A stretch of DNA of 64,000 nt, taken from assembly GCA_013178165.1 (NCBI GenBank), contig JABLXG010000036.1, positions 6,874 through 70,873 on the forward strand, given 5' to 3'. A program made the translations under genes and the position numbers. Of the stretch, positions 6,100-47,283 are shown in pieces. This DNA comes from Anaerolineae bacterium. Lineage in GTDB: Bacteria; Chloroflexota; Anaerolineae; Aggregatilineales; Ch27. Every line of letters starts with the position of its first letter. Positions within the stretch are counted from its first letter, which is position 1. Below the pieces are notes generated by a model. That model searched no databases. It saw only the letters and a program-made list of their open reading frames with translations, and was not told where the DNA came from.

Positions 6100-7209
6100 T
6101 CAAAGTGTCGTTTCGTCGCTGATCCTGCCCAGCCACGTCGCCGCCGCTACCTGGCGCACCTCGCCCGTATCCAACGCGATCTTCCAGGTGCCGTCCTGGC
6201 GGGGGTTGGTCAGCAGCACACCGCTGCCATCTTCAGTCCAGGCCAGGGGCAGCAACGGCACCAGCAGTGGATTGTAGATCAACTGGCGCTGTTCACCCCG
6301 CACTGTATCGACCAGCGCCAGCATAAACCGCTCCCGCCCGCTGGTTGCGCTATCGATGCTCAGGTTGCTGGCCAGGCTATAGACCGCCCGGCGGCCATCG
6401 TCCGCCACCAGCACCGCCCCTGCCGCCTGATAGTTGACATTGAGCGACCGGGTAAACACATCAACCCCCGCCGCCAGGTCCCATACCCGTACATCATACC
6501 CCCCGGCGGAACTGACCTGTTCCAGGCGGGCAAAATACTGACCATTGGCGGAAACCGCCCCACCGCAAAAGCAATTCGGCTCAAAGGGCAAGAGTTCCGG
6601 CCCCGCGCCGGGATCAGCTAGATTCAGCCGGTGCAGAGCCGCATACTGGCGGTAGAAGAAAAAATCGCCCACGCTCTGCGGCTGGCGGTCAAAGAAGAAA
6701 AGCCGGTCGGCGACCAGCGCCACCGGTGCTACCCGCATAAAGGTATCCGGCCCATCGGTCAGGATAACCCGCGGCTGGGTGCCATCAGCGCGGGCCAGTG
6801 TGGTGATCGTCTGCAGCCCACCGTCCGTTTGGTTGGCCAGCGTCCAGGCGATCCACTGGCGATCCGCCGAAACGACCCAGTCAATCCGGCGCGTCTCCGG
6901 GGCCGGTTGAATGAAAGGGTGCGATTCGATACGGCCATCCGGCCAGGCGCGGTAGATCGTCCTGGTGACCGGGTCTTCGTACAGTACATACCCGCCGACG
7001 ATCGCAAAGCGATCGCCGCTGACATCCACGGTGACAGTCTGGGCAGTCAGGGCATCAACAAAAAACAACCGGGCCATACCGGCGGGTGCGCCGGGAGGCA
7101 TGCGCATGACATAGACTTCAGTCAGGCCGCTATCCGGCTGGGCCAGCGCCAGCCCACCCACAGCCATCAGCACCGCCGCCGCCAGCCAGACGATCCCGCG
7201 CCTGATCAT
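6100..7209 (-). CDS. Secreted hypothetical protein, beta-propeller-like (TolB/PD40-like repeats suspected)
   Basis: Signal peptide MIRRGIVWLAAAVLMAVGGLALAQP. Repetitive beta-strand-rich sequence. Its start overlaps the cobB stop by 4 nt. Confidence 0.5.
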   Translation of the reverse strand: MIRRGIVWLAAAVLMAVGGLALAQPDSGLTEVYVMRMPPGAPAGMARLFFVDALTAQTVTVDVSGDRFAIVGGYVLYEDPVTRTIYRAWPDGRIESHPFIQPAPETRRIDWVVSADRQWIAWTLANQTDGGLQTITTLARADGTQPRVILTDGPDTFMRVAPVALVADRLFFFDRQPQSVGDFFFYRQYAALHRLNLADPGAGPELLPFEPNCFCGGAVSANGQYFARLEQVSSAGGYDVRVWDLAAGVDVFTRSLNVNYQAAGAVLVADDGRRAVYSLASNLSIDSATSGRERFMLALVDTVRGEQRQLIYNPLLVPLLPLAWTEDGSGVLLTNPRQDGTWKIALDTGEVRQVAAATWLGRISDETTL

Positions 7210-7976
7210 TGCCCCTGTCCCCCTCGCCTGGCCCGGATGATCGCCACCAGCTGCGGGAGAATCTCCCCGGCAGGGCCATCAAGCCACAGCGCGGCCAGCG
7301 AGGTGATCGCGCTGGCCGCAGGGTTGATCTCGATCAGGGTTGCCCCGGCGCGGAAGGCCAGCGAGGGCAACGCGGCGACCGGCTGCACCACGCCGGATGT
7401 CCCCACAACCAGCATGACATCTGCCTCCTGCGTCACGATCATCGCCCGCAACAGCGCCTCGGCGGGCAGATTTTCGCCAAACCAGACGACATCAGGCCGC
7501 GCCAGCGCGCCACAGTAAGGACAACGCGGCAGGCCATCCTCGACCGGCGCATCACCGCTGAAAGCCGTCGGCACTCCCCGGCAACTGGCAGTACACCGGC
7601 TGCCCATGATTGCACCGTGCAGAGGGATGACATCGCTGCTGCCTGCCCGCTGGTGCAGATCGTCCACATTCTGGGTGATTAGCACCACATGCGGCAACAG
7701 GTCCTCCAGTTCAGCCAGGGCATAATGTCCTGGATTCGGCGCCGCCTTCCGCACTATCTCGCGCCGGTAGGCGTACCACTCCCACACCAGCCTGGGATCG
7801 CGCTGGAACGCTTCCGGCGTCGCCAGTTCAGCTGGATCGTACCTGTGCCACAGGCCATCGTCCTTATCCCGGAAGGTCGGCACGCCGCTTTCCTTGCTGA
7901 TGCCCGCCCCTGTCAGGACGACCAGTCGCTGGCTGCGACCAATGATCGCGGCTGCCTCCATGATCCTGTGCTGCAT
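7206..7976 (-). CDS. cobB: NAD-dependent protein deacylase, Sir2 family
   Basis: GAGISKESGVPTFR, QNVDDLHQRAG, Zn-ribbon Cys pairs (C..C and CPYC), VVGTSG. Confidence 0.85.
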   Translation of the reverse strand: MQHRIMEAAAIIGRSQRLVVLTGAGISKESGVPTFRDKDDGLWHRYDPAELATPEAFQRDPRLVWEWYAYRREIVRKAAPNPGHYALAELEDLLPHVVLITQNVDDLHQRAGSSDVIPLHGAIMGSRCTASCRGVPTAFSGDAPVEDGLPRCPYCGALARPDVVWFGENLPAEALLRAMIVTQEADVMLVVGTSGVVQPVAALPSLAFRAGATLIEINPAASAITSLAALWLDGPAGEILPQLVAIIRARRGGQGQ

Positions 7977-8216
7977 AACCCCGACTCCTGGATCGATACG
8001 CGCCCGCTATTCTAGCACAGCCCGCCCTGCCCCGGCGCAATCCAACCGCTGATTAGAAATCTGACAGAAAAACGGAGCCTTATTGTCTGCTAATAGCCTT
8101 CCGGTCTATAGTGGGTTTACCGCGGGCTGAAGAGACTCCTGCCGCAGGAGCAGCCTGGGCAGGGAGTGCGTTGCAGCCGCGGGAATCGACCGTAGAGGTT
8201 CAAGGAGTACATTACC

Positions 8217-9209
8217 ATGACCGATCTTGAATCGGCCCAGGCAGTGCTGGACGCCCATAGCCGGGCGATCCAGGCGGTGGTGGCGGCAGTAGCGCCGGCC
8301 GTCCTGCGCGTGGAAGCGACGCGGGGTGGGCGCGGGCGTGACTGGCCGCCAGGTCGTGCCCGGACGGCTTTCGGTTCCGGGTTCGTGATCAGCGCGGAGG
8401 ATGGGCTGGCAGTGACGAACTTCCATGTCGTCCGCGACGCCCGTCAGGTGATCGTCCACCACCACGATGGGACGTCAACACGCGGCGAAGTCATCGGCGC
8501 CGACGCTGACGTTGATCTGGCGGTGATCCGCGTCAGAGGTGAGAACCTTGCGGCTGCGCGGTGGGGCGATTCGACCGCCCTGCAGGTGGGCAGCATGGTG
8601 CTGGCCCTCGGCAATCCGGATGGCGACTGTGTGGTGGCCACCAGCGGCATCGTGAGCGCCTTGGGGCGGCAGTTACGCGGCCCTTCCGGCAGGCTGCTGG
8701 ATGACCTGATCCAGACCGATACAATCTTCAACCCCGGCATGAGCGGCGGGCCGCTGGTCAACAGCGCCGGGCAGGTGGTCGGCATCAACACCGCCAGCCT
8801 GGTGGAAGCGCAGGGCATCAACCTGGCGATCAGCAGCGTCAGCGCCCGCCCGCTGGTGGACGATCTGATTCGCTTCGGCGAGATCCGGCGGCCGCTACTG
8901 GGCATCGCCGGAGAACGCCAGCGGCTATACGGCGGGCTGATCCGGCATCACCAGCTGGGGCAAACTCACGGTGTATACATCCACGAAGTGCGCCCCGGCT
9001 ACCCGGCTGCTAAAGCCGGGATCCGGGCCGGCGACATCCTGATCGAGGCTGATGGCCAGGTCATCGAAGGTCTGGACGATCTGCATCGTGTCCTGAGCGG
9101 CAAAGCGTTAGGGGCGGAAATGTCCATCCGTTTGCTGCGCGATCTGGATCTGGTAGAGGTAACCGTCACGCTGGACGCCCCTGCGGCAACTCCGGCATCC
9201 GAATCCTGA
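8217..9209 (+). CDS. S1C (HtrA/DegP-like) serine protease with C-terminal PDZ domain, no signal peptide
   Basis: Catalytic triad contexts TNFHVV, DVDLAVI, NPGMSGGPL. PDZ-like C-terminus (GDILIEADGQVIEG). SD AAGGAG lies upstream. Confidence 0.85.
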   Translation: MTDLESAQAVLDAHSRAIQAVVAAVAPAVLRVEATRGGRGRDWPPGRARTAFGSGFVISAEDGLAVTNFHVVRDARQVIVHHHDGTSTRGEVIGADADVDLAVIRVRGENLAAARWGDSTALQVGSMVLALGNPDGDCVVATSGIVSALGRQLRGPSGRLLDDLIQTDTIFNPGMSGGPLVNSAGQVVGINTASLVEAQGINLAISSVSARPLVDDLIRFGEIRRPLLGIAGERQRLYGGLIRHHQLGQTHGVYIHEVRPGYPAAKAGIRAGDILIEADGQVIEGLDDLHRVLSGKALGAEMSIRLLRDLDLVEVTVTLDAPAATPASES

Positions 9210-9217
9210 GTAGGTAG

Positions 9218-9245
9218 CCGCCCCGGTCTGCCATGGCCGGGGCGG
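9218..9245 (+). terminator. GC-rich hairpin downstream of the HtrA-like gene
   Basis: CCGCCCCGG (9218-9226) pairs with CCGGGGCGG (9237-9245) around a 10-nt loop. The T-tract is weak (TCTCCC). Confidence 0.4.
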
Positions 9246-9357
9246 TCTCCCGCCTGCTGCCGTTCGCCGCGTCGGGCAGACGCAAATTTCCCGCCCCGCC
9301 GCATCACAGGTATGATGATCTCGGTCAGCGTATACGATTACCCGGAGGTAGGAAGCT

Positions 9358-10137
9358 ATGCAACAGTCGCTGCAGGATAGGGTCGCCCTGGTTACCGGTT
9401 CGGCCCACCGCGTGGGCAAAGCGATCGCCATGGCTCTGGCCGCTGAGGGTGTGCATCTGGTGGTGCATTACAGCGGCGCCGAAGCTGAAGCGCGGGAGAC
9501 CGTCCGCGAGATCAAGAGCCTGGGTGTGCAGGCGATCAGCTTTCGTGCCGATCAGGCTGACCCAGCGCAGGTGAGCGCTCTGTTTGACGCTATTCGGGAA
9601 GCGTTCGGGCGGCTGGACATCCTCGTTAACAGCGCGGGTATGTTCAAGAAAACGGATTTCCTGGAGCTGAGCTATGAGGAATGGCAGCGCGTCCTGGCCG
9701 TCAATCTGACCGGCCCATTCCTATGCAGTCAGCAGGCGGCGCGCCTGATGCTGGCTCAGGACCCGCCCGGCGGTGTGATCATCAACATCATCGATAACAG
9801 CGCTCTCCAGCCCTGGCCGGACTTCCCCCATCATAGCGTCAGCAAAGCCGGCGTGCTGATGCTGACCCGGCTGCTGGCCCGCCGGCTGGCCCCCGCCATC
9901 CGCACCAATGCCATCGCCCCTGGCCCCGTGCTCAAAGAGCCAGGCCGCACCGATGAAAGCTGGGCGCAGGTAGCCGCGCGGGTGCCCCTTCAGCGCAACG
10001 GCACACCGGAAGATGTCGGGCGGGCGGTAGTCTACCTGGCGCGGGAGGACTTCCTCAACGGGGTGGTGCTGAACGTCGACGGCGGCGAACACCTGACCGA
10101 TTCCGGCTCCCCGCTGAAGCCGCGTGCCGCCGGTTAA
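9358..10137 (+). CDS. SDR family oxidoreductase
   Basis: VALVTGSAHRVGKAIA cofactor motif and catalytic HHSVSK (Y-to-H variant of YxxxK, as in pteridine-reductase-like SDRs). 259 aa. Confidence 0.75.
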   Translation: MQQSLQDRVALVTGSAHRVGKAIAMALAAEGVHLVVHYSGAEAEARETVREIKSLGVQAISFRADQADPAQVSALFDAIREAFGRLDILVNSAGMFKKTDFLELSYEEWQRVLAVNLTGPFLCSQQAARLMLAQDPPGGVIINIIDNSALQPWPDFPHHSVSKAGVLMLTRLLARRLAPAIRTNAIAPGPVLKEPGRTDESWAQVAARVPLQRNGTPEDVGRAVVYLAREDFLNGVVLNVDGGEHLTDSGSPLKPRAAG

Positions 10138-10285
10138 GCGCCGGGCCACGCCGGGGCACAGGAGAAGTCAGCAGGGGATTCTGTGAGCAAAGCGGCAGGT
10201 GAAGGAAGGGACCAGAGGCAGGAACCGGATTCGCGCCGCCACCCGGTTCTGGCCAGCCAGTGGTCTCAGGCCATTCCGCCCGGCG

Positions 10286-10948
10286 CTAGCGTTCCTTACG
10301 GAAACCATAGCGGCCATAGAGCAGCACAAACATCACCGGGGCCAGGTCCTCAATACGCCACGATTCGCCTTCCCGCCGGACGCGCACCAGCATCTGGCTG
10401 GTGCGATCGCCCACCGGCAGCACCAGCCGGCCACCCTCAGCGAGCTGCGTGCGCAACGGGCCAGGTATGGATGGCGCCGCCGCCGACACAAGGATAGCGT
10501 CAAACGGGGCCATGTCCGCCAGCCCCTGGCTGCCATCGCCGACATAGACCTCCACGTTGGTGTACCCGAGGTCGGTCAGCCGGGTAGCGGCGCGGCTGGC
10601 CAGAAAGCGATCGCGTTCCAGGCTGTAGACCTGCTTGCATAGCTCGCAGAGCACGGCGGTCTGGTAACCCGAACCCGTGCCTACCTCCAGGACCGTCTCA
10701 TCTCCTTTGAGTTGCAGGCTCTGCGTCATCAGGGCCACGATATACGGCTGGGAGATGGTCTGGTCATGGCCGATCGGCAGGGGGCCATCGTGGTACGCCA
10801 GGTGTTGTAGTTCCGGCGGCACAAACAGGTGGCGCGGCACCTTGCGCATGGCTTCCAGAACGCGGGAATCGACGATATCCCGCGCTTCCAGTTGTTCTGC
10901 TACCATCCGCTCGCGCAGCGCTGTGTAATCCATATCCATGTTGCGCAT
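10286..10948 (-). CDS. pcm: Protein-L-isoaspartate O-methyltransferase
   Basis: VPRHLFVP, ISQPYIVALM, VLEVGTGSGYQTAVL, DAILVSAAA. Confidence 0.85.
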   Translation of the reverse strand: MRNMDMDYTALRERMVAEQLEARDIVDSRVLEAMRKVPRHLFVPPELQHLAYHDGPLPIGHDQTISQPYIVALMTQSLQLKGDETVLEVGTGSGYQTAVLCELCKQVYSLERDRFLASRAATRLTDLGYTNVEVYVGDGSQGLADMAPFDAILVSAAAPSIPGPLRTQLAEGGRLVLPVGDRTSQMLVRVRREGESWRIEDLAPVMFVLLYGRYGFRKER

Positions 10949-11177
10949 TCCCCGCTGCCCCCATTATACCAGTAGCCGCCCGCGAACAAGATCGCGGTAC
11001 GGTCAGGGTTCCGCTGCAAGCAAAGACCTCAGGCAAGCGGGCGCCGGGCAGTGGAGAGCAAGCACCGCCTAGCAGCCAGACTTGACCTGCGGCGGCAGCG
11101 CCCACCCGTGCCGCCTGTCTACCCCCGGCCTCTGCTTTCAGGCGTCGCCCCACTGCCGGAAATCACTGATATCGATG

Positions 11178-11207
11178 TTGGACAGCCCCCCTCCTCCTCT
11201 GTATAAT
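11178..11207 (+). promoter_or_regulatory. Promoter candidate (TTGGAC-18 nt-TATAAT) for the methyltransferase-sortase unit
   Basis: TTGGAC at 11178-11183 and TATAAT at 11202-11207. Confidence 0.45.
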
Positions 11208-11253
11208 CGCCCGTTGAACACCGGCTTGAACACGTCCTGCGGGAGAACCACGG

Positions 11254-12069
11254 TTGCCCGAACATAATCGCCCTACTGTAGCGCCTGAGCTATACACCGA
11301 GGAGTATTTCCGCACGGCCTGCGAAGGCTACGACGAGTTTAACCGGAGCGAAGGTGAGCAGCTCTCGCGGCGCTTGAAGGCGGCTTTTGAGCTGGCGGCA
11401 ATCCGCCCCGGCATGCTGGTGTTAGATGTCGGCTGCGGACGCGGCGAAATCCTGCGCCACTGCGCCGAACTCGGCGCACACGCCTACGGCATCGACTACG
11501 CACCGGTCGCCGTGGATATGAGCGCCAGTGTGATCCGCCGCAGCGCCAGCACCAGCGGCAGGATCGGCGTCAGCCAGGCCAATGCCCGCCACCTGCCCTT
11601 CCCAGACGCTACCTTTGACCGCGTGCTGATGTTTGATGTGGTCGAGCATCTGTACCCCTGGGAACTACAGGAAGCCCTTCGGGAAGTGCATCGCGTGCTC
11701 AAAGCCGATGGGCGATTCATCGTGCATACCGCGCCTAACGCCTGGTATGATCGTTACGCCTACCCGGTCGTCCGCGTGGTGCGCACACTGATGGGTCAGG
11801 GCAGCCGTTACCCGGCCAACCCACGGGAATTCCTGGTGGGCGTTAACGCCCACGTACATGTCAACGAGCAGAGTTTGTTCAGCCTGCGGCGGGTCCTGCA
11901 ACAGGCAAACTTCGATGCTCATGTCTGGCTGGATAGCCCACCCCAGCGATGGGGGCGCGATCCAGTGGGCCAGCTGCGCCGCTTGCTGTTTCACATCCCG
12001 CCGTTCCGCTGGTTCTTCCAGCGGGAAGTGTTTGCCGTCGCTGCCAAGAGAGTCCAAAGGATCGGCTGA
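11254..12069 (+). CDS. Class I SAM-dependent methyltransferase
   Basis: Motif I VLDVGCGRGE, post-I DY, motif II FDRVLMFDVVEHL. TTG start. Confidence 0.75.
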   Translation: MPEHNRPTVAPELYTEEYFRTACEGYDEFNRSEGEQLSRRLKAAFELAAIRPGMLVLDVGCGRGEILRHCAELGAHAYGIDYAPVAVDMSASVIRRSASTSGRIGVSQANARHLPFPDATFDRVLMFDVVEHLYPWELQEALREVHRVLKADGRFIVHTAPNAWYDRYAYPVVRVVRTLMGQGSRYPANPREFLVGVNAHVHVNEQSLFSLRRVLQQANFDAHVWLDSPPQRWGRDPVGQLRRLLFHIPPFRWFFQREVFAVAAKRVQRIG

Positions 12070-12071
12070 CG

Positions 12072-13154
12072 ATGCGTGACAAGCGCCCTGTGGACGAACT
12101 CTCAATCGAGGAACTGGAACGCATCCTGGCGATTCGCAAGCGCGAGGCGCGGCTGGAGCGTCTGCGCCGTCTGGGTCTGGAAGGGCGCCGCGCCCTGCCA
12201 GACCGTGAATCGCTGTCCGGCGGCACACCGTCTGAAGCCAGGTTGCCGGAGACAGCCACACCGGCCCGGGTTCGCCCGACTGCGCCAGACCCTGGCGGCG
12301 CCGATACCCTATCACCGGCTAACATTGCGGCAGCATACACCGATGCCGCGGCGGATGGCCTTCCTCGCTTCGAGGAAGAGCCTGCCTGGATTTCACCGGC
12401 CAGCCAGGCGCCGGTTACCAGTTCGCTACAGAAAACGATCTGGAATCGACTGCTGCTGCTGGTCGAGGTTCTGGCGGTCATCGGCCTGCTGATCATCGGC
12501 GTGGAGTTGTTCCAAGCCCTCCAGACTCTGCAGGAGGAAACAGCTGCGGTTCAGGCCCAGGCTCAGGCGGCGGCGTTCGCCAGCCTGCCGACTCCGACTG
12601 TCACGCCGGAGATCAGCCTCAATCGCATCGTGCTGCCCAGCGGCCATACACCGCCCACCGCCGCCGGAGGCGCGCAGTTCAACCTGAACGAAATCCCCGC
12701 CCACCTGCGCCCGATCGTCCAGCAGCAACTGGCCGCGCCGATTGTGATCCCGACACCCGGCCCGGAAAGCCCGGTGCGCATCCAGATTCCGGCCATCGGT
12801 GTTGACGCTCCGATCGTCAGCGGCACGGACTGGGAAGCGCTCAAGCGCGGCGTTGGCCACCAGCCCAATACTGGCCTGCCAGGCCAGCCAGGCAATATGG
12901 TCCTTTCCGCCCACAACGACATCTACAGCGAAATCTTCCGCCACCTGGATCGGCTTTCGCCCGGCGACCAGATCACTGTCTATACTCTGACGCGCAGTTA
13001 CACCTATGTCGTGCGGGAGACGCAAATCGTATCACCGTACGCCGTGCACGTCATGGACCCCACCCGTGAACCAACGGCGACCCTGATCTCCTGCTATCCG
13101 TATCAGGTGGATAACCAGCGTATCGTCGTCTTCGCCGATTTGCAGCAGGGCTAG
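12072..13154 (+). CDS. Sortase family transpeptidase with long N-terminal cytoplasmic extension and one TM helix
   Basis: In-frame ATG at 12072, 2 nt after the methyltransferase stop. Catalytic His context GNMVLSAHND, Cys in TLISCYP (TLxTC-like), Arg in QRIVVFA. TM segment LLLLVEVLAVIGLLIIGV. Confidence 0.75.
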   Translation: MRDKRPVDELSIEELERILAIRKREARLERLRRLGLEGRRALPDRESLSGGTPSEARLPETATPARVRPTAPDPGGADTLSPANIAAAYTDAAADGLPRFEEEPAWISPASQAPVTSSLQKTIWNRLLLLVEVLAVIGLLIIGVELFQALQTLQEETAAVQAQAQAAAFASLPTPTVTPEISLNRIVLPSGHTPPTAAGGAQFNLNEIPAHLRPIVQQQLAAPIVIPTPGPESPVRIQIPAIGVDAPIVSGTDWEALKRGVGHQPNTGLPGQPGNMVLSAHNDIYSEIFRHLDRLSPGDQITVYTLTRSYTYVVRETQIVSPYAVHVMDPTREPTATLISCYPYQVDNQRIVVFADLQQG

Positions 13155-13194
13155 CGCCCTTCGCTGCCCGATAACCACAGCCAAAGGAGAACCT

Positions 13195-13470
13195 ATGGCC
13201 CGCAAGAAAGCACCCCGTCGTACGAATATTGCTCAGGAATCTCTGGAGCGCGCCCGACGCGAAGCCAACGGGCAGCTCTATGTCCCCCCTGCTCCGCGCC
13301 TGGAAAGCACCCCCGCCCGCAGCGGCAAAGCGCCGGTCGCCGAAGTCCGCAAGACCACGGTCGAAGATCTCGCCGCCGAGTACGCCTACGTGTTGACCGA
13401 CCTGCGCAATATGGGCGCCCTGGCGCTGGCGCTATTCGCCGCGCTGATTATCGCATCGTTCATCCTCTGA
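13195..13470 (+). CDS. Small C-tail-anchored membrane protein, hypothetical
   Basis: 91 aa. SD AAAGGAGA upstream, basic N-terminus, single C-terminal TM segment GALALALFAALIIASFIL. Confidence 0.5.
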   Translation: MARKKAPRRTNIAQESLERARREANGQLYVPPAPRLESTPARSGKAPVAEVRKTTVEDLAAEYAYVLTDLRNMGALALALFAALIIASFIL

Positions 13471-13497
13471 TCGTCGCGGCACACCGCTGCAGCGAAT

Positions 13498-13529
13498 ACC
13501 AAAGCCCTCCTGCTGCGGAGGGCTTTGGT
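13498..13529 (+). terminator. Intrinsic-terminator-like hairpin
   Basis: ACCAAAGCCCTCC / tgctgc / GGAGGGCTTTGGT forms a perfect 13-bp stem. It is followed by GTTGACTTT, a modest T-tract. Confidence 0.6.
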
Positions 13530-13556
13530 GTTGACTTTCCCACCCTCTGCCTTCTT

Positions 13557-13578
13557 ATTTGTGAAAACTATCACAAAT
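13557..13578. promoter_or_regulatory. CRP/FNR-family binding-site candidate (perfect palindrome ATTTGTGA-N6-TCACAAAT)
   Basis: The sequence atttgtgaaaactatcacaaat has exactly complementary 8-bp arms. Its core matches the TGTGA-N6-TCACA CRP consensus, and it ends 2 nt before the -35 hexamer. Confidence 0.5.
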
Positions 13579-13579
13579 C

Positions 13580-13608
13580 TTGACACCCCTCTGCGTGCTG
13601 TCTATACT
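13580..13608 (+). promoter_or_regulatory. Consensus-like sigma-70 promoter (TTGACA-17 nt-TATACT) upstream of the MBL hydrolase/DegV cluster
   Basis: TTGACA at 13580-13585 and TATACT at 13603-13608, with a 17-nt spacer. Confidence 0.55.
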
Positions 13609-13678
13609 CTGCCCACTGGCTGGATCTTCCCCTCTGTAACCGGTACGTGTTGCCTTGTCACAGTGATCGCCCAGAGCC

Positions 13679-14521
13679 ATGCAGCGTGAACGTGTAGCCG
13701 ATGACATCTATGTGTTCACCAGCGAGCTGTATGCCCAGGTTACCGCTGGCGCCATCGTGACTCCTGAGGGCGCCATTCTCATCGACACACTGGCCTACCC
13801 CGAAGAAACACTCCAGATCAAGAACTTCCTGGAAAAGCGTCTCAACTGCCCGGTACGTACGGTCATCAACACCCATTACCACGCCGATCACACCTTCGGC
13901 ACCTACCTCTTTGAGGATGCGCTGGTCGTTGGCCATGCCCTGTGCCGCGACCTGCTGGATACCCGCGGGCGCAGGAGCATGGAAGAAGCCAGGCGGAGCA
14001 GCTCCGAGTTTACTGATGCCCGCATCGTGCTACCTGCAATGGTCTTCAAGACTGGCACGCTGGCCGTTCACCTGGGCAATAAGACGGTTGAACTGTGGCA
14101 TTCCCCCGGCCACAGCCCGGATTCGGTGGTAGCCTACGTGCGCGAAGACCGTATCCTCTTTGCAGCGGATACGATCATGCCCATCCCATACTTTGTAGAC
14201 GGCAGCTACGCTGACTTCATCAGGTCGCTGGAGGCCCTGCGCGGCAAGGGGTTTGAGTGTGTTGTCCAGGGGCACGGCGAGGTTGTACTGCGCGGCGAAG
14301 TGGAAGCCAAACTGGATTCAGACCTGGAATACCTCAGGCGGATCAGGCAACAGGTGGAAAAGGCGCTGGACCGTAAAAGCCCTGAAAAATACCTAGAGAA
14401 GATCGATATTGAAAGCTGCGGCAAAAGCCGCATTGCCCTCAACGGCGCTGTCCAGGCCCTCCACCGCGCCAATGTCCGTCTGCTCTACAGCCAGGTGCGC
14501 GCAGAAACGGTCCGGGCCTGA
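13679..14521 (+). CDS. MBL-fold metallo-hydrolase
   Basis: HxHxDH motif as THYHADH, downstream SPGHSPDS and QGHG metal-ligand contexts. 280 aa. Confidence 0.8.
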   Translation: MQRERVADDIYVFTSELYAQVTAGAIVTPEGAILIDTLAYPEETLQIKNFLEKRLNCPVRTVINTHYHADHTFGTYLFEDALVVGHALCRDLLDTRGRRSMEEARRSSSEFTDARIVLPAMVFKTGTLAVHLGNKTVELWHSPGHSPDSVVAYVREDRILFAADTIMPIPYFVDGSYADFIRSLEALRGKGFECVVQGHGEVVLRGEVEAKLDSDLEYLRRIRQQVEKALDRKSPEKYLEKIDIESCGKSRIALNGAVQALHRANVRLLYSQVRAETVRA

Positions 14522-14528
14522 GATGCCG

Positions 14529-14558
14529 TTGCCAAACTGCATCTTTGTACCCTATACT
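14529..14558 (+). promoter_or_regulatory. Promoter candidate (TTGCCA-18 nt-TATACT) before DegV copy 1
   Basis: TTGCCA at 14529-14534 and TATACT at 14553-14558. A GCGGAG/CTCCGC hairpin plus GCGTTTTCGTTCTC follows at 14577-14607. Confidence 0.4.
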
Positions 14559-14656
14559 CTGGTCAAACCGCCTGCTGCGGAGTCACGCTCCGCGCGTTTT
14601 CGTTCTCTGATTGCCCTGCGCCGTGAGTCCTATCACCTTCAGGGAAGGAGCTGCCT

Positions 14657-15505
14657 GTGACGCCGCGATTTGCCCTGGTTACCGATACCACTGCTGACCT
14701 GCCTACCGAACTTGTCCGGCAACACAACATCTATATGATTCCGCAGATTATCGTCTGGGGCCGGGAAAGCCTGCGCGAAGGCATCGATATCACCAGCGCT
14801 GAATTCTTTCAGCGGCTGGCGACGACTACCGTCATGCCTACCACCTCACGCCCCGTACCTTCCGATACCGTCGATCTCTTTAAGCGTGCCATCAAAGAGA
14901 CCGGCGCGGAATCGGTGGTGGCCGTGGTCGTCTCCAAAGACGTCAGCGGCACCGTCTCGTCCGTCGAACAGGCCATGAAAGAGGTCGATTTCCCCGTCCA
15001 CCTGGTCGACACCCGAACTATCTCGCTGGCGCTGGGCCTGACCGTCCTTAAAGTGGCCGAGGCGCGTGACGCTGGCGCCAGCCCGGAGGAAGCCGTCGCT
15101 CTGGCCAGAGCTACCGCCGCCAACAGCCATGCCATCTTCACCCCCGGCACCCTGGAATTCCTGCGCCGTGGCGGGCGCATCGGCGGGGCCAGGCATCTCC
15201 TGGGCACGGCCCTTAACATCAAGCCGATCCTGACCATCCAGGACGGGCATGTTGAACCACTGGAAAACGTGCGCACCCGCAAACGCGCCCTACAGCGACT
15301 GATCGAGTTGACGGGTGAACGGATCGCACCCGGCAAGCCAGTTCAGCTTGGCGTCGTCCATGGCGCAGTGCCAGAGGAAGCAGCTGAGGTCGCCAGCGCG
15401 TTGGAACAGCTCTATAAGCCAGAACGCCTGCTCCAGAGCTGGATCGGCGCATCGATCGGTGTCCACGCCGGGCCTGGCGTACTGGGTATCATGATCGTGC
15501 AGTGA
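14657..15505 (+). CDS. DegV family (FakB-like fatty-acid-binding) protein, copy 1
   Basis: GTG start after SD GGAAGGAG. FALVTDTTADLP, PTTSRP, LEFLRRGGRIGGA, GVHAGPG. Confidence 0.85.
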   Translation: MTPRFALVTDTTADLPTELVRQHNIYMIPQIIVWGRESLREGIDITSAEFFQRLATTTVMPTTSRPVPSDTVDLFKRAIKETGAESVVAVVVSKDVSGTVSSVEQAMKEVDFPVHLVDTRTISLALGLTVLKVAEARDAGASPEEAVALARATAANSHAIFTPGTLEFLRRGGRIGGARHLLGTALNIKPILTIQDGHVEPLENVRTRKRALQRLIELTGERIAPGKPVQLGVVHGAVPEEAAEVASALEQLYKPERLLQSWIGASIGVHAGPGVLGIMIVQ

Positions 15506-15660
15506 TCGCCAACCGTATATCAGCGCAGCCAACCGTGGTAATCCTGGCCGGTGCAGGATAAACAGGTCTCTTGCCCGGCCTGTTTTATCTGTGGCAGTAA
15601 CACTTTGCTGCTGAAGGTGTTTTAGCACTTGAATAAAACACTATTGTGAAGGAGGACTTC

Positions 15661-16512
15661 GTGGCTCGCTTTGCCCTGATCACCGACAGCACCTCTGATC
15701 TGCCACCCGCCATTGCCCGCGAGCGGCAGATTCACGTGGCGCCACTGTACATCATCTGGGGCCAGGATAGCTTGCGTGACGGCATCGATATCACCCCGGA
15801 ACAGTTCTATCGTCGCCTGGCTATCGACCCTGTGCTGCCAACAACATCCCAGCCAACCCCCGCCGATTTTGCCCAACTGTACCGGAAGATCCATGCCGAA
15901 GACAACAATATTGAGGGGGTGTTGGTCACAACGATCTCCGCCGATCTGAGCGGGACCTATGCTTCAGCGATCCAGGCCCGCGACATGGTTGACTTCCCGG
16001 TAGAAGTCGTCGACCTGCGCTCGGTAACGCTGGGCACTGCCATGCCTTTGCTGCAGGTGGCCGATGCCCGCGACCAGGGTGCCTCCCTTCAGGAAGCTGC
16101 TGCCCTGGCCCGATCGCTGGCCAACCGGACGCACATCTACTTCACGCTGGACACCCTGGAATACCTGCACAAGGGTGGCCGTATCGGTGGCGCCAAGCGT
16201 CTGATCGGCACCGCCTTCAACATCAAACCCGTGCTCCAGATCGCTAACGGCAGGGTTGAGGCCAAAGAGAGCATCCGGACGCGCAAGCGCGCGCTGAGCC
16301 GGCTGGTTGAGCTATTTGAGGAAACCGTCGATCCCACCAAAACGCTATACGTTGGCTTGCTGCATGGCCAGGCCCCGGCGGATGCCGACTGGCTGGAGGC
16401 AGAAATCACAGCCCGCTGGCAACCCGCCCAGCTGATCAAAGCCCAGGTCGGGGCGGTGATCGGCGTGCATACCGGCCCCGGCGCCGTGGGTTTTGCCCTA
16501 TTGCAACGTTGA
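15661..16512 (+). CDS. DegV family protein, copy 2
   Basis: GTG at 15661 after SD GAAGGAGG (the track ORF starts 15 nt earlier). FALITDSTSDLP, PTTSQP, LEYLHKGGRIGGA, GVHTGPG. Confidence 0.85.
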   Translation: MARFALITDSTSDLPPAIARERQIHVAPLYIIWGQDSLRDGIDITPEQFYRRLAIDPVLPTTSQPTPADFAQLYRKIHAEDNNIEGVLVTTISADLSGTYASAIQARDMVDFPVEVVDLRSVTLGTAMPLLQVADARDQGASLQEAAALARSLANRTHIYFTLDTLEYLHKGGRIGGAKRLIGTAFNIKPVLQIANGRVEAKESIRTRKRALSRLVELFEETVDPTKTLYVGLLHGQAPADADWLEAEITARWQPAQLIKAQVGAVIGVHTGPGAVGFALLQR

Positions 16513-16595
16513 GTATCGTCCGGCCAGCCCGGCGCAACAGGTAGGCCAGCATCCTCAGCCGGGCTGGCCACCAGAACAGGAGAAGGAGTCATCAC

Positions 16596-17447
16596 GTGCC
16601 CCCGCAAATTGCGATTGTGACCGAAAGTACAGCGGATATCCCCCGCGACCTGGCCGCCGAACGCCAGATCTTCACCACCCCCATGCACATTTTCTGGGAT
16701 GGCGAGGATTTGCGCGATGGCGTGGATATTGCGCCTGTCGAATTCTATGAGCGTCTGGTCACTTCGCGCACACATCCAACCACTTCGCAGCCCACAGTGC
16801 CGGAATTCGCGGAAACATTCGAGCGCGCTCGCGCGGCAACAGGCGCTGTAGCGGTCATCGTCATGACGATGTCCGCCAAGCTGAGCGGCACTTACAACGC
16901 TGCCTGCCAGGCTGCCCGCGCGGTGGACTTTCCTGTGCACGTTATCGACACCCGCACCGGTTCGCTGGCGCATGGTCTCGCCGCGCTGGCCCTGGCCGAA
17001 GCACGGGACAACGGCATCAGCCCACAGGAGGCGGTCCGGCTGGCCCGCGAGCTCGCCGACCGCACCAAGATGATCTTTGCGCTTAACACGCTTGAATATC
17101 TCTATCGCAGCGGACGGGTGAGCAACCTCAAGCGTCTGCTGGGGGCAGCACTTCAGATCAAGCCGATCCTGCACGTTCAGGATGGCGGTATCACCCTGCT
17201 GGAACAGGTGCGCACGCGCCATCGCCAGATTGAGCGATTGTTCCAGATCTTCGAAGAAGTGGCCGATCGCACCAAGCCGCTGCGCGTTGGCGTGCTCCAT
17301 GGCAACTCCTTCCAGGAAATGCAGGAGTTCGTGGAGAGGATTCGCTCCCGCTGGAATCCAATCCAGCTGGTCACTAACACAGTCTGTGCACCCGTCGGAG
17401 TTCACACCGGCCCAGGCTCGCTGGGCTTCGCTATCCTGCAAGTGTAG
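16596..17447 (+). CDS. DegV family protein, copy 3
   Basis: GTG start after SD GAGAAGGAG. IAIVTESTADIP, PTTSQP, LEYLYRSGRVSN, GVHTGPG. Confidence 0.85.
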   Translation: MPPQIAIVTESTADIPRDLAAERQIFTTPMHIFWDGEDLRDGVDIAPVEFYERLVTSRTHPTTSQPTVPEFAETFERARAATGAVAVIVMTMSAKLSGTYNAACQAARAVDFPVHVIDTRTGSLAHGLAALALAEARDNGISPQEAVRLARELADRTKMIFALNTLEYLYRSGRVSNLKRLLGAALQIKPILHVQDGGITLLEQVRTRHRQIERLFQIFEEVADRTKPLRVGVLHGNSFQEMQEFVERIRSRWNPIQLVTNTVCAPVGVHTGPGSLGFAILQV

Positions 17448-17497
17448 CCGGGGCGCCTGAGCCACAGCGAGATTTGAAAGTAGAGTAGATAGAATAT

Positions 17498-17526
17498 TTG
17501 CAATATTTGGACGTAATATGTACAAT
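17498..17526 (+). promoter_or_regulatory. Promoter candidate (TTGCAA-17 nt-TACAAT) in an AT-rich island before DegV copy 4
   Basis: TTGCAA at 17498-17503 and TACAAT at 17521-17526. An imperfect inverted repeat GGACGTaaTATGTA ... TACATAaCGTCC (17509-17543) brackets the -10. Confidence 0.5.
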
Positions 17527-17610
17527 ATATCTACATAACGTCCATTTATTCAGGCTTACCTGCCTGCCAGCCCAGGGATAGCGTCAGTAAAAGGATTCTG
17601 GAATCCGCTC

Positions 17611-18459
17611 ATGAAACCGAAGATTGCCATTGTGACCGATAGCACATCTGATATCCCCGCTGCCCTTGCCGCCGAGCGCCAGATCTTTGTTGCCCCGTTG
17701 CACATCCTGTGGGGCGGCCAGGACTTACTGGACGGCGTCGACATCAGCCGGGAAGAGTTTTACCGGCGGCTGACGACCGATCCCCACCACCCGACTACAT
17801 CTCAGCCCGCTCCGGAGGAATTCGCCGACCTGTTCCAGCGCGCCCGCGATGCCACTGACGCCAGCGCTGTGCTTGCCGTGACCATCTCCGCTGCCATCAG
17901 CGGCACCTACAATTCTGCCGAACAGGCCGCCAGGCTGGTTGACTTTCCGGTTCATCTGGTCGACTCACGGACAACTTCCGGCGCGCTGGGCCTGTTGGCC
18001 CTGGCCATTGCCGACCTGCGTGACAGTGGAGCACCGGTCGAGCAGATCGTCCAGCAGGCACGCGAATACGTCAGCCGGACCCGGGCTATCCTGACCATTG
18101 ATACACTGGAATTCCTGCACCGCAGCGGGCGTGTCAGTGCCGCCCGGCGCTGGATCGGCGTACTGCTACAGATGAAGCCGATTCTGTATGTCAACAATGG
18201 ACGGCTGGAGGCGCTGGAGGCCGTGCGCACCCGCAATGCCGCCCTGACCAGGATGCTGGAACTTTTCAACAGCTGGGTAGATCCCCATCGCCCGCTGCAC
18301 GTGGCCATCCTCTATGGCGACACACCGCAGGACGCCGACGCCTACGAGGCTGCGCTCAAAGAACGCTGGAATCCGGCTTTCATCATGAAGGTGATTGCGT
18401 CTTCAGCGGTTGGTGTGCATACTGGACCCGGCGCAATGGGGCTGACCCTGTTTCAGTAA
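17611..18459 (+). CDS. DegV family protein, copy 4
   Basis: IAIVTDSTSDIP, PTTSQP, LEFLHRSGRVSAA, GVHTGPG. 282 aa. Confidence 0.85.
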   Translation: MKPKIAIVTDSTSDIPAALAAERQIFVAPLHILWGGQDLLDGVDISREEFYRRLTTDPHHPTTSQPAPEEFADLFQRARDATDASAVLAVTISAAISGTYNSAEQAARLVDFPVHLVDSRTTSGALGLLALAIADLRDSGAPVEQIVQQAREYVSRTRAILTIDTLEFLHRSGRVSAARRWIGVLLQMKPILYVNNGRLEALEAVRTRNAALTRMLELFNSWVDPHRPLHVAILYGDTPQDADAYEAALKERWNPAFIMKVIASSAVGVHTGPGAMGLTLFQ

Positions 18460-18492
18460 AGCCCCCTGGTTAGGACACAAGCGAGGAGCAGT

Positions 18493-18978
18493 ATGGAGCT
18501 ATTCACGCCGGAGCATGTCCAGGCGGCGCTGGATCGCTTTGGCCTGGGGCTGAAGATTCGCCTGTTTGAGCAGTCCACCGCAACCTCTCAGGAGGCCGCC
18601 GACGCCATCGGGACGGCGCTCGGTACCATTGTCAAGAGTCTGTGTTTCATGGTGGATGGCCAGCCGGTTGTCGTCCTGGCAGCGGGAGACCAGCGCATTG
18701 ATGACCGCAAGCTGGCCGCGCTCTACAACACTTCCCGCAAAAAGGTCAGGATTGCCACCGCGGAACAGTGCATTGCCATCTTCGGCTACGCGCCCGGCAG
18801 CGTCCCGCCGGTTGGCCACCGCACGCCCAACCTGCCGATCTACATCGAGGATTCGCTGGGGCGCTTCACCCAGCTTTACGCTGCTGCCGGCGCACCAAAT
18901 GCCATCTTCCCGGTGACCTACGAGCAGTTACAGCAGATCACCGGCGGTAAAATCGCCGACCTGAAGCGAGAAGGCTGA
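18493..18978 (+). CDS. YbaK/EbsC-type aminoacyl-tRNA deacylase domain protein
   Basis: 161 aa. IVKSLCF, VVVLAAGDQRID..KLA, FGYAPGSVPPVG are typical of the YbaK/ProX editing-domain family. Confidence 0.75.
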   Translation: MELFTPEHVQAALDRFGLGLKIRLFEQSTATSQEAADAIGTALGTIVKSLCFMVDGQPVVVLAAGDQRIDDRKLAALYNTSRKKVRIATAEQCIAIFGYAPGSVPPVGHRTPNLPIYIEDSLGRFTQLYAAAGAPNAIFPVTYEQLQQITGGKIADLKREG

Positions 18979-19007: not shown

Positions 19008-19071
19008 CCCACATTTTCCCGCCGGATAACCCACCTTTTCCCACATTATCCCGCACGGAATCCCACCCGTG
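19008..19071. repeat. Imperfect 32-bp tandem direct repeat (2 units) built on CCCAC motifs
   Basis: Unit 1 is cccacattttcccgccggataacccacctttt (19008-19039). Unit 2 is cccacattatcccgcacggaatcccacccgtg (19040-19071). CCCAC occurs at 19008, 19030, 19040 and 19062. Confidence 0.5.
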
Positions 19072-19079
19072 CGGGATAA
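19046..19079. terminator. Perfect 13-bp hairpin between convergent ybaK-like and tsaC genes
   Basis: TTATCCCGCACGG / aatcccac / CCGTGCGGGATAA. There is no clear T-tract on either side. Confidence 0.45.
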
Positions 19080-19085
19080 TGCGCA

Positions 19086-23827: not shown

Positions 23828-25235
23828 GGGTGCATTCCAGATTGGGGGCAAGAAAGGGGTAGACTAGGGGGACGCTGAGGAGGATAAGCCAAATGGGACA
23901 ATCAGACGGGGCGTTGCGGGCGGCGCTGCAAGCGCAAATGAGCGAGATACTCGATGCTTTACTGGCCGAGAAGACGGCAGCTGAGCAGATCACCTTGAGT
24001 GAGATAGAGCAATTGGTGACGGTGGCAGGGAAGAAGATGCAGGCGGTGTTGACGGCGGGGTTGGTGGAGCAGGCGAGCGAGGAAGACCGGTCAGCGGCGG
24101 GGCCAGTGTGTGCGCATTGTGGGCAGGCCATGCACTACAAGGGACAAAAGGGGAAGTACGTAGTCACGGCAACAGGGGGAGTGCAGGTCAAGCGGGCCTA
24201 TTACTACTGCAAGACCTGCCGGGCGGGTGTTTTTCCCCCTGGATCAGCGATGGGGACTGGGAGCGAGCCAGTATAGTGAGCGACTGAGCAAGCAAATCGT
24301 GTGGCTGAGCAGCCTGTTGCCCTATGCCCAGGTGAGCCAGGTCATGGCGTGCATTGGGGGGCAGACCATCGGTCAGACCAATGCCTGGCGTGAGACCCAG
24401 CACCGGGGGGCACAACTGCAGGCGGAAATGGCCCGCCGACAGGCTGCCCTGCGGCCTGAGCGCATCGTGCCCAGCAATGCTCGCCAGGACCATCAGCGGC
24501 TGAAAGGGGTGAGCCTAGATGGCGGGATGGTGCATGTGCGTGGCGAGGGCTGGAAGGAGTTTAAAGTCGGGGTAGTCTATGATCTGGGCGTCCGTGATGG
24601 GTATGATGTGCGGAGTGGGGAAGCCGCTGCGCAGCCCTGCGCGGAACAGAGCCACTACACGGCAGTGCTGGGTGACGTAGCCCGCTTTTCCCCGGCTTTG
24701 TGGGAACTGGCCGCAGCTCATGACCTGTTGAATGCCGCCCGCAGCAGCGTCACCGCTGACGGGGCCGAGTGGATTTGGAACCTCTGTGCCGACATATTTC
24801 CCGACAGTGTCCAGATTGTCGATTGGTACCATGCCACCCAACACCTGGCTGAGGCGGCGCAAGCCCTCTTCCCTACCGCGGAGGCCCAGGCGATAAGCTG
24901 GTATCACCAGGCCCAGGACCTCTTGTTCTACGGCCAGGCCTGGCGCATCGTTCAGACCTTGCACCAGGCGGGATTACCAGACCTGGCGCTGTATTTCGAG
25001 CGTCACCAACGTCGCATGCGCTACCACGAGTTTCGCGAAGAAGGCTGGCTGATTGGGTCTGGCCCTGTTGAAAGCGGCATCAAACAATACCGAACCCGCC
25101 TGGCCGGTGCGGAATGCACTGGTCCCGCCCAGGTGTGGAGCGGATGCTTGTCCTGCGTTCTGCAGTCTTGAGCCACGACTTCGATGACCTCTGGACTGCC
25201 GCGGCTTGACCCTGCCCCCAATCTGGAATGCACCC
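23828..25235 (+). mobile_element. ISKra4-family insertion sequence, about 1.41 kb, with perfect terminal IRs and a target-site duplication
   Basis: IRL gggtgcattccagattgggggca (23828-23850) is the exact reverse complement of IRR (25213-25235). Flanking direct repeat GGTGATAA at 23820-23827 and 25237-25244. The boundary is ambiguous by 1 nt, giving a 7-8 bp TSD. Confidence 0.8.
23893..25209 (+). pseudogene. ISKra4-type transposase gene disrupted by two 1-nt frameshifts
   Basis: ORFs 23893..24276 and 24227..25171 join as ...CKTCRAGVFPLDQRWGLG... if one nt is removed from the T5C5 run at about 24229-24240. A second shift near 25100 restores the family-typical tail GMHWSRPGVERMLVLRSAVLSHDFDDLWTAAA* (stop 25207-25209). 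Confidence 0.75.
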
Positions 25236-36411: not shown

Positions 36412-37677
36412 ATGCCCACACTGTTGAATGTTGACGAAACCCTGCGCCTGATCCTGGCCGAGATCACCACCCTACCCGCTGAAGAAGTCGCCCTGAGCGA
36501 CTCCCTGGGCCGCATCCTGGCGATTGATATCTCCGCTGCAACCCCGCTGCCTCCCTTTGCCAATAGCAGCATGGACGGCTTCGCCGTGCGTGCTGCAGAT
36601 ACCGGCGCAGCCACACCGGATCATCCGGTCACGCTGCCGGTCAGCCTGGACATCGCCGCCGGGGACGCGCCGATGGCAACGCTGCCGCCCGGAACCGCCG
36701 CCCGGATCATGACCGGCGCGCCGCTGCCTCCCGGCGCGGATGCTGTCGTGCCGCTGGAAGCCACGGATGCGCACTGGGCCGCCGGGGACTCTGCCAGGCC
36801 GCCAGAAACGATCCGCATTCATCAACCTGCCCGACCGGGCGACTACATCCGGCCAGCGGGAGAGGACATTCAGGCCGGGCAGATCGTGCTTCGCGCCGGT
36901 GCCGAAATCGATCCGCCGGCCATCGGCGTGCTGGCGGCGCTGGGCTGGCCACGGGTGCCGGTCATCCGCCAGCCGCGCGTGACTATCCTTTCCAGCGGGG
37001 ATGAACTGATCGGCGTTGAAGAGCCGCTGGCGCCGGGCAAGGTGCGGGACAGCAACAGCTATGTGCTGGAGGCGCTGGTGCGCCAGCACGGCGGGCTTCC
37101 CCGGCGCATCCCGGTAGCGCGGGATACCCTGGCCGACGTGCGGAGACGTTTGCAGGAGGCGCTGGCCTGGCAGCCAGACCTGCTGATCAGCTCAGCCGGA
37201 GTTTCTGTTGGGGCGCATGACATGGTGCGCACCGCCCTGGACGAACTGGGTAAGATCCGGCTGTGGCGGATTAACCTGCGCCCCGGCAAGCCGCTGGCCT
37301 ACGGACGGCTGGCGGACGTGCCGTTTTTTGGCCTGCCGGGCAACCCGGTCAGCGTGCAGATCACCTTCGACGTGATCGTGCGGCCGGCATTGCTCAAGAT
37401 GGCCGGACGGCCCGACGTGGTGCCGATGGCGCAAGCGATTCTGGAGGAAGACATCGCCGCTGACGGGCGGCTGACCTACTTTCGCGTCCGGCTCAGGCGC
37501 GGCCCCGATGGACAGCTTTACGCCTCCTCCACCGGGACGCAGAGTTCCGGCGCCATGCTCTCGATGGTGCTGGCCGACGGCCTGCTGATCATCCCGGCAG
37601 GGGTTCACAGCGCCCGCGCCGGGGAACAGTTCCCCGTCCGTCTGCTACGAACGCCTGGCTGGTTGCCGCCTGCCTAG
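36412..37677 (+). CDS. moeA: Molybdopterin molybdotransferase
   Basis: 421 aa. SSMDGFAV, ILSSGDEL, DSNS, GLPGNPVS. Its stop overlaps the stop of the convergent SDR gene inside CTAG (37674-37677). Confidence 0.85.
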   Translation: MPTLLNVDETLRLILAEITTLPAEEVALSDSLGRILAIDISAATPLPPFANSSMDGFAVRAADTGAATPDHPVTLPVSLDIAAGDAPMATLPPGTAARIMTGAPLPPGADAVVPLEATDAHWAAGDSARPPETIRIHQPARPGDYIRPAGEDIQAGQIVLRAGAEIDPPAIGVLAALGWPRVPVIRQPRVTILSSGDELIGVEEPLAPGKVRDSNSYVLEALVRQHGGLPRRIPVARDTLADVRRRLQEALAWQPDLLISSAGVSVGAHDMVRTALDELGKIRLWRINLRPGKPLAYGRLADVPFFGLPGNPVSVQITFDVIVRPALLKMAGRPDVVPMAQAILEEDIAADGRLTYFRVRLRRGPDGQLYASSTGTQSSGAMLSMVLADGLLIIPAGVHSARAGEQFPVRLLRTPGWLPPA

Positions 37678-47209: not shown

Positions 47210-47283
47210 TGGATATTCTCTCCTTGGGGATTGGCGGCTCACGCCTCTATAATATACCCCGCACCAGGAGAACGGGAGCACGT

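Follow-up and report, generated by a model that had tools for sequence, protein, structure and literature searches.

Multi-FakB fatty acid kinase (Fak) systems, in which several fatty-acid-binding FakB subunits of the DegV family serve the kinase FakA, have already been described. Enterococcus faecalis carries four dispersed fakB genes and one fakA encoded elsewhere (PMC12288450). In the FakB proteins, residues corresponding to T61, S93, and H266 of Staphylococcus aureus FakB2 (SaFakB2) hold the fatty acid carboxylate, R170 is needed for activity (phosphotransfer), and R202 is required for FakA docking (PMC10848957). PlsY-DegV fusions are present in cultured Anaerolineae (Bellilinea, Thermanaerothrix), tying the family to the acyl-phosphate route (PMC5700162). 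Here, a 64-kb stretch of the Anaerolineae bacterium contig JABLXG010000036.1 (64,000 nucleotides, hereafter the window) was analyzed, in which four consecutive DegV genes, V1 to V4, lie between a metallo-beta-lactamase (MBL)-fold hydrolase gene and a YbaK-like gene. On the best reading, the array is an expanded, otherwise ordinary part of a known lipid-recycling system; the locus is probably a collinear array of FakB subunits that differ in chain selectivity and share a FakA whose gene lies elsewhere, and there is no solid indication that the MBL and YbaK-like proteins function with them.

All four DegV genes are located on the forward strand. V1 (14657–15505, 282 aa; NCBI protein NPV68654.1), V2 (15661–16512, 283 aa), V3 (16596–17447, 283 aa), and V4 (17611–18459, 282 aa) match PF02645 with E-values of 6e-77, 2e-79, 8e-77, and 9e-81, respectively, at 259–272 bits (cut-off 27) and over model positions 1–278 of 280, and they match TIGR00762 at 270–289 bits against a cut-off of 99.7. 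These full-length matches above the curated cut-offs place all four proteins in the DegV/FakB family, and a profile run over all six-frame open reading frames (ORFs) of the window recovered these four DegV genes, a single YbaK-like gene, and no further members of either family. The original prediction, which had been made from the sequence alone, reported four same-strand DegV genes at these positions and four family motifs, all of which are present in the alignment of the copies, and it estimated their identity at well under 60%; by pairwise alignment, the copies are 43.3–51.8% identical in amino acid sequence and about 70% in nucleotide sequence. A Shine-Dalgarno site had also been ascribed to each copy, which is correct for copies 1–3 with their strong GGAGG-type sites and not for copy 4, which has only an AAGGA about 15 nt upstream. 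The successive gaps from the MBL gene through V1, V2, V3, and V4 to the YbaK-like gene are 135, 155, 83, 163, and 33 bp. An Rfam scan of the whole window detected no RNA family.

Over their whole length, the four proteins can be aligned with solved DegV/FakB structures (15–25 chains), and on this ground they are predicted to adopt the two-domain EDD fold and to enclose a fatty acid. The closest solved structure is the Thermus thermophilus DegV 2DT8 (E 6e-47 to copy 2), while SaFakB2 (4X9X) and SaFakB1 match V1–V4 at about 1e-30 to 1e-35 with an identity of ~30%. In the alignment with 4X9X, corrected for its 20-residue tag, SaFakB2 T61, S93, R170, R202, and H266 correspond to T63, S97, R174, R206, and H270 of copy 1, and these five FakB-defining residues are invariant across V1–V4. 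They are kept in 97–100% of 120 homologs, the exceptions being a Thr-to-Ser change in eight of 26 V2 sequences and a His-to-Ile change in three of 21 V4 sequences. The docking Arg, whose only known role is to dock FakA, is thus retained in four orthogroups under purifying selection, which argues that the partner kinase is still present.

The copies are distinct types with a long history. A profile search retrieved the 120 close homologs, each of which is nearest to one window copy (55–99% identity) and about 50% identical to the next-best paralog. Orthologs of every copy occur in related Anaerolineae metagenome-assembled genomes (MAGs) at 55–89% identity, and the V1 orthologs as a whole range from 60 to 99%. 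In a bootstrapped neighbor-joining tree, V1 (100), V3 (92), V4 (94), and V3 + V4 (96) were recovered as groups. V2 is paraphyletic in this tree and on average is the type closest to most outgroup DegVs, which stand next to YbaK-like genes; V2 is regarded as the ancestral-like type and V1 as the most derived one. Only four positions are fixed within every group and yet different between groups, too few to be informative, and per-group diagnostic residues were used instead. V1, V3, and V4 possess six to eight of these each (eight in V1) and V2 none, and two of those in V1, R65 and V96, adjoin the carboxylate-binding T63 and S97. The ratio of nonsynonymous to synonymous substitution rates (dN/dS) against a sister MAG (L002; JAIOAT01, S1bins113), which is ~95% identical and has an identical layout, is 0.030 for V1, 0.071 for V2, 0.047 for V3, and 0.056 for V4, and the MBL and YbaK-like genes gave 0.042 and 0.040. 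On related contigs, the V1-V2-V3-V4 order is collinear and the copy number varies from two to five, with V4 missing from the 3-copy arrays (L013, L020) and duplicated in the 5-copy array (L012). On the strength of the orthogroup identities, the tree clades, the collinear order, and the dN/dS values of 0.03–0.07, the array is an old product of serial tandem duplication that has been maintained by selection. On one 524-kb ENA contig (L015), the V1 ortholog (7204–8080) and the YbaK-like gene (10903–11386) are each split into two ORFs, representing either pseudogenes or long-read indel errors.

As the original prediction stated, no FakA partner is encoded in the window. A tblastn search with a three-domain FakA query (Dak2 + FakA_M + FakA_C, validated against Pfam) returned a best E-value of 9.9, and the best match of a FakA profile to all six-frame ORFs of the window was one of the DegV copies (E 0.22). 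Given that the fakB genes of E. faecalis are dispersed and its fakA lies elsewhere (PMC12288450), the lack of FakA in the window is not unusual, and for FakB genes a distant or absent fakA is the norm. Canonical FakA exists in Chloroflexota, for example in the Dehalococcoidia MAG UWMA-0337 (L007), where a compact fakA-degV-recG order occupies positions 8294–13456.

The scenario proposed here builds on the observed family membership, residue conservation, orthogroups, selection, synteny, and promoter conservation. An ancestral V2-like gene in a lineage of the Anaerolineae was probably duplicated in tandem several times, with V1 and the ancestor of V3 and V4 arising first and the V3/V4 split following. 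Each FakB would most likely bind a different class of free fatty acid and offer its carboxylate group to one FakA kinase whose gene lies in another part of the genome, and the bound acyl-phosphate would pass to PlsY/PlsX and so enter phospholipid synthesis. Expression of the copies would be driven from at least two internal promoters, the conserved ones ahead of V1 and V4, so that the FakB repertoire would be tunable. The MBL hydrolase would be a separately promoted neighbor controlled via a CRP/FNR-type box, and the YbaK-like gene would encode a tRNA trans-editing factor whose co-transcription with V4 is a relic of the history of the locus.

The transcriptional architecture is consistent with several units in the region. 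Five promoter-like sites were found, compared with 1.8 ± 1.3 in shuffled sequences, and the motifs that the original prediction had noticed before the MBL gene, copy 1, and copy 4 match the consensus at 11, 10, and 9 of 12 positions and are all conserved in relatives. The copy-1 site (TTGCCA-18-TATACT, 14529–14558, forward strand) is kept as TTG(C/T)CAA...TATACT in five loci (L001, L002, L018, L010, L021). Between this site and V1 there is a short GC hairpin with a T-rich tail (14574–14606, forward strand), a terminator-like match whose stem, with some base changes, persists in L002, L018, and L021 and whose energy is no better than that of shuffles (z = -0.56); it could be the terminator of the MBL gene or a leader/attenuator structure. 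Copy 1 is followed by a terminator-like hairpin and then TGTTTTAT (15546–15592, forward strand; V1-V2 spacer fold z = -2.3), and a 12-bp GC-rich hairpin with no T-run lies between copies 2 and 3 (16522–16569, forward strand; z = -2.9). The copy-4 site (TTGCAA-17-TACAAT, located in an AT-rich intergenic spacer, 17498–17526, forward strand) is conserved as TTGCA(A/T)...ATACAAT in each of the five 4-copy loci. Its -10 box is overlapped by an imperfect palindrome, TGGACGTAATATGTA...TACATAACGTCCA, at 17508–17544, a possible operator whose conservation is limited to the closest relatives (L002, partly L018). Downstream of the array, the convergent YbaK-like (+) and Sua5/TsaC (-) genes are separated by a 15-bp hairpin at 19044–19081 (-40.6 kcal/mol, z = -5.6, a stability reached by none of 200 shuffles), which is likely a bidirectional terminator and the 3' boundary of the region. 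With conserved promoter-like sites inside the region and terminator-like hairpins after the MBL gene and V1, the MBL-DegV(x4)-YbaK series does not have the makeup of a single operon, and only V4 and the YbaK-like gene look co-transcribed. The order we infer is a terminator; the CRP-box promoter and the MBL gene; a promoter-like site with hairpin and V1; a hairpin and V2; the GC hairpin and V3; a promoter with V4 and the YbaK-like gene; and the bidirectional terminator.

The gene preceding the array (13679–14521, forward strand) encodes a cytoplasmic MBL-fold metallo-hydrolase of 280 aa, which matches PF00753 (E 1e-21, 77.8 bits) and carries HYHADH, the HxHxDH zinc motif of the superfamily; the original prediction had named both this hydrolase and the YbaK-like gene on the other side (PF04073, E 3e-25), and both identifications stand. 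The MBL protein falls far below every NCBIfam equivalog cut-off, including those for class B beta-lactamase, glyoxalase II, and SoxH-related proteins (the best being SoxH-related, 98 against 280 bits), and matches no thioesterase/lipase-type or other defined MBL subfamily; its best PDB match is 8D2Z (E 6e-14). The MBL gene accompanies the DegV genes wherever a clade locus has enough sequence to tell, even where DegV identity has dropped to about 60%, and in these loci about ten other flanking genes are syntenic too (SIR2, HtrA, SDR, PCMT, methyltransferase, sortase, and a small ORF). No MBL gene was found beside DegV or DegV-YbaK loci outside the clade.

A perfect TGTGA-N6-TCACA palindrome of the CRP/FNR-family consensus (13560–13575, forward strand) is located 4 nt upstream of the -35 box of a promoter-like TTGACA-17-TATACT preceding the MBL gene (13580–13608, forward strand; 11 of 12 matches). 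It is the only perfect TGTGA-N6-TCACA site in the window, and its position is conserved in the clade loci (L002, L010, L012, L013, L015, L018, L020, L021); of eight aligned clade loci, seven have it in perfect form and L010 has one mismatch. Of the ten perfect sites present in 751 kb of retrieved loci, eight belong to MBL promoters, and both promoter hexamers are invariant in eight aligned clade loci whose DegV1 orthologs are only 63–100% identical. The palindrome, its fixed distance, and its conservation in orthologous promoters point to a CRP/FNR-type promoter. No Crp/Fnr-family regulator was identified in the window. Upstream of this promoter, a terminator-like 16-bp hairpin (13495–13532, forward strand; -40.5 kcal/mol, z = -5.7, none of 200 shuffles as stable) closes the preceding methyltransferase-sortase-91-aa ORF unit and forms the 5' boundary of the region. 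This unit (11254–13470), which ends in that strong hairpin and is conserved with the array across the clade, encodes a class I S-adenosylmethionine methyltransferase (weak CMAS-like matches), a sortase whose start abuts the stop of the methyltransferase, and a 91-aa protein that ends in a hydrophobic tail. Because the MBL gene neighbors DegV within one clade only and has a promoter of its own, a coupling of MBL and DegV was rejected, and no evidence was seen that the hydrolase works with the DegV proteins.

The gene following V4 by 33 bp (18493–18978, forward strand) encodes a YbaK-like free-standing aminoacyl-tRNA editing-domain protein of 161 aa, which matches PF04073 at 89 bits against a cut-off of 25.5. 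It aligns end to end with TTHA1699 of T. thermophilus, a free-standing protein described as a putative trans-editing enzyme (PDB 2CX5, E 1e-26), while the canonical E. coli-type YbaK, 2DXA, matches only at E 1e-3, and the YbaK_EbsC equivalog (TIGR00011) is not reached (57.5 bits against a cut-off of 153). K48, the catalytic Lys, together with G98, G102, and P106, is invariant in 84 orthologs, in keeping with membership of the INS/YbaK superfamily. Judged by sequence, this neighbor is a ProX/TTHA1699-type tRNA-editing homolog and not a canonical YbaK. The gene lies 27–55 bp after the last DegV in all clade loci, whatever the DegV type or copy number, and is probably co-transcribed with V4.

The pairing of DegV with this gene extends beyond the clade. 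A 3.68-Mb genome with a single DegV of 44% identity (L016, 10001–11348) has the same pair, with the two genes 13 bp apart and set among entirely different neighbors. When metagenomes were scanned with the alignment of YbaK-like orthologs, 80 loci were obtained, 48 of which have at least 900 bp of upstream sequence; a DegV gene lies directly upstream in 13 of the 48, and 35 have no adjacent DegV. The pair occurs in at least four distinct contexts, L016 included, and outside the clade in at least three, represented by L016, by cluster-2 loci (L032, L035 (L035/L036), L044, L052, L095), and by L029, with one or two DegV copies and no MBL gene. The gene orders macro (reverse)–YbaK (forward)–Mfd (reverse), DegV (forward)–Mfd (reverse) without a YbaK-like gene (L017), and macro (reverse)–DegV (forward)–YbaK (forward)–Mfd (reverse) (L029) were all found, and these variants suggest an ancestral DegV-YbaK locus with differential loss. 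Among the 84 orthologs, no residue separates DegV-adjacent from non-adjacent YbaK-like proteins, and the possibility of a neofunctionalized YbaK-like protein beside DegV was rejected on this ground. A full-text literature search on both family names found no paper linking the two families. The DegV-YbaK-like pair is real and without explanation, and its simplest reading is the inherited co-transcription of a tRNA-editing gene.

Several observations weigh against the interpretation of the array as FakB subunits with a remote kinase. None of the four copies reaches the FakB1 equivalog NF038249 (154–179 bits against a cut-off of 350), so no chain-specificity class can be assigned from sequence. 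No FakA was found within 6–10 kb of approximately 30 DegV-bearing loci except L007. Two FakA homolog searches, one with the Chloroflexota FakA of L007 and one with a profile of six high-GC FakAs, each gave at least 8000 matches below E 1e-30, and no protein tied to the clade of the window was seen among the matches listed; the named ones include Chloroflexi, Dehalococcoidia, and SAR202 MAG proteins, and the lists were dominated by Dehalococcoidia/SAR202 and by unrelated long-read ENA lineages. The hairpin and T-run at 14574–14606 stand within ~15 nt downstream of the putative V1 promoter, an odd order without explanation, and an MBL-DegV-YbaK order held to about 60% identity is not guaranteed by a purely accidental neighborhood. 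No FakA of the source genome or its clade was identified in the two homolog searches, and the partner kinase of the FakB reading is a presumed one. It is nevertheless improbable, in our estimate, that the DegV and ProX-like pair represents a real functional coupling, in which, for example, FakB captures the fatty-acid or lipid product of an ester hydrolysis, or that the clade lacks FakA and uses a kinase-independent DegV pathway.

Among the rival explanations, some paralogs may no longer be substrate carriers for a kinase and may instead have become fatty-acid sensors or buffers or acyltransferase escorts, a specialization beyond chain selectivity. The diagnostic substitutions of V1, V3, and V4 (six to eight each), with V1 R65 and V96 beside the carboxylate-binding residues, the separate conserved promoters, and the PlsY-DegV fusions of Anaerolineae, which suggest specialized escort roles (PMC5700162), would all fit such a change. 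However, all five catalytic and docking residues are kept in every orthogroup, and this explanation is considered unlikely.

An equally doubtful alternative is that the DegV and ProX-like proteins form a functional pair, in which the hydrolase acts on a lipid-linked acyl or aminoacyl ester (for example, an aminoacyl-lipid, acyl-adenylate, or acyl-phosphate-like species) and cooperates with the adjacent FakB. The invariable position of the YbaK-like gene 27–55 bp behind the last DegV of any type or copy number, the recurrence of the pair outside the clade in at least three genomic contexts and in 13 of 48 metagenome loci, and the departure of the protein from canonical YbaK speak for such cooperation. 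However, the 35 loci without an adjacent DegV and the L017 DegV without a YbaK-like gene fit an ancestral adjacency followed by differential loss, and no residue tells adjacent from non-adjacent proteins, the Lys and the G..G..P..H motif being invariant in 84 of 84. The closest solved relative is a putative tRNA trans-editing protein, and the literature holds no link between the two families that the search could find.

The original prediction went further and proposed that the MBL hydrolase, the four DegV proteins, and a deacylase-fold protein may form a specialized acyl-lipid module rather than a simple Fak system. Spelled out, this would be a FakA-independent module in which, for example, the MBL hydrolase frees fatty acids from an ester or thioester for uptake by the DegV proteins. 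In its favor, all clade loci of sufficient length show the MBL-DegV(n)-YbaK order, even where DegV identity has dropped to about 60%, no FakA was seen near any array, and the TesE thioesterase of E. faecalis offers a precedent for a hydrolase feeding FakB (PMC12288450). Against it, the adjacency of the MBL gene is confined to one clade in which some ten flanking genes are syntenic as well and is not seen in the DegV-YbaK pairs outside, the MBL gene lies behind a strong terminator-like hairpin and is served by a conserved CRP-box promoter of its own, V1 and V4 likewise have conserved promoters in front of them, and the MBL protein matches no thioesterase/lipase-type subfamily. The DegV copies keep both the docking and the phosphotransfer Arg (SaFakB2 R202 and R170) under strong purifying selection, and the supposed deacylase is a tRNA-editing homolog whose sequence is alike with or without a DegV neighbor. 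We regard this module as still less probable than the two preceding alternatives. What the prediction said of FakB-type DegV proteins, diverged paralogs, and the lack of FakA in the window is borne out, and the specialized module found no positive support. A survey of gene neighborhoods nevertheless found both the MBL and YbaK-like neighbors conserved with the array in relatives, and the prediction is thus not fully overturned; for the MBL gene a specialized module has no support, and for the YbaK-like gene it is only weakly suggested. Finally, recent duplication or an assembly artefact, which would have undone the prediction altogether, can be set aside as next to impossible, since alignment, tree, and relatives show copies at 43–52% amino acid identity in old orthogroups, and since the gene order is repeated in an independent metagenome assembly (L001, SRR6186653), in the 95%-identical sister MAG (L002), and in more than ten related MAGs or contigs overall.

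A few other genes of the window were recorded. Two are lipid-related and lie 19–30 kb from the array, an enoyl-ACP-reductase-type SDR (37674–38450) and an MGDG-synthase-like glycosyltransferase (48435–49631). A 326-aa protein (47209–48189) has two tandem RNase H domains (PF00075, two stretches). The ORFs at 24227–25171 and 58982–60247 are transposase-like by eye (the former with no Pfam match) and suggest mobile elements in the window.

If the FakB reading is true, the locus is a clean natural example of FakB repertoire expansion by tandem duplication, with four long-lived and separately promoted paralogs outside Firmicutes, in a phylum that has received little study and about whose lipid metabolism little is known. 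The array offers four related proteins with few diagnostic substitutions for studying acyl-chain selectivity, and it leaves the picture of the fatty acid kinase mechanism unchanged. The conserved CRP/FNR-box promoter in Anaerolineae provides a handle on regulation in uncultured Chloroflexota and may outweigh the array in usefulness, as may the recurrent DegV and ProX-like pair.

Compared with known systems, the array most closely resembles the Firmicutes FakA/FakB proteins (S. aureus FakB1/FakB2, 4X9X and 6MH9; Streptococcus pneumoniae FakB1-3; Streptococcus suis FakA-FakB2), with which V1–V4 share the DegV family over the full length and all five defining residues, including the FakA-docking Arg. 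In both cases, there are several paralogs per genome, thought to differ in acyl-chain preference, and fakB is not adjacent to fakA. In contrast, V1–V4 are only ~30% identical to those proteins, fall below the FakB1 equivalog cut-off, and are encoded in one collinear tandem array instead of dispersed genes, and their host is an uncultured member of the Anaerolineae whose FakA partner was not located. E. faecalis, with FakB1, 2, 4, and 5 and one FakA, likewise has four FakB paralogs and a kinase encoded elsewhere, as is presumed for the array, and two of its four FakBs are outside the characterized specificity classes (PMC12288450); its fakB genes are scattered on the chromosome, whereas those of the array are local tandem duplicates with a long-kept order. 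The YbaK-like neighbor shares the invariant Lys and the Gly/Pro motif with the INS-superfamily trans-editing proteins (TTHA1699/ProX-type, YbaK, and ProXp-ala) and differs from them in falling below the YbaK/EbsC cut-off and in standing recurrently right after a DegV gene. The closest solved structure, T. thermophilus DegV 2DT8, is a fatty-acid-binding DegV with a single domain pair from a thermophile that is likewise not a Firmicute. The PlsY-DegV fusions of Bellilinea and Thermanaerothrix belong to the same class, Anaerolineae, and link DegV to acyl-phosphate delivery to PlsY (PMC5700162), whereas V1–V4 are free-standing proteins in a window that encodes no PlsY.

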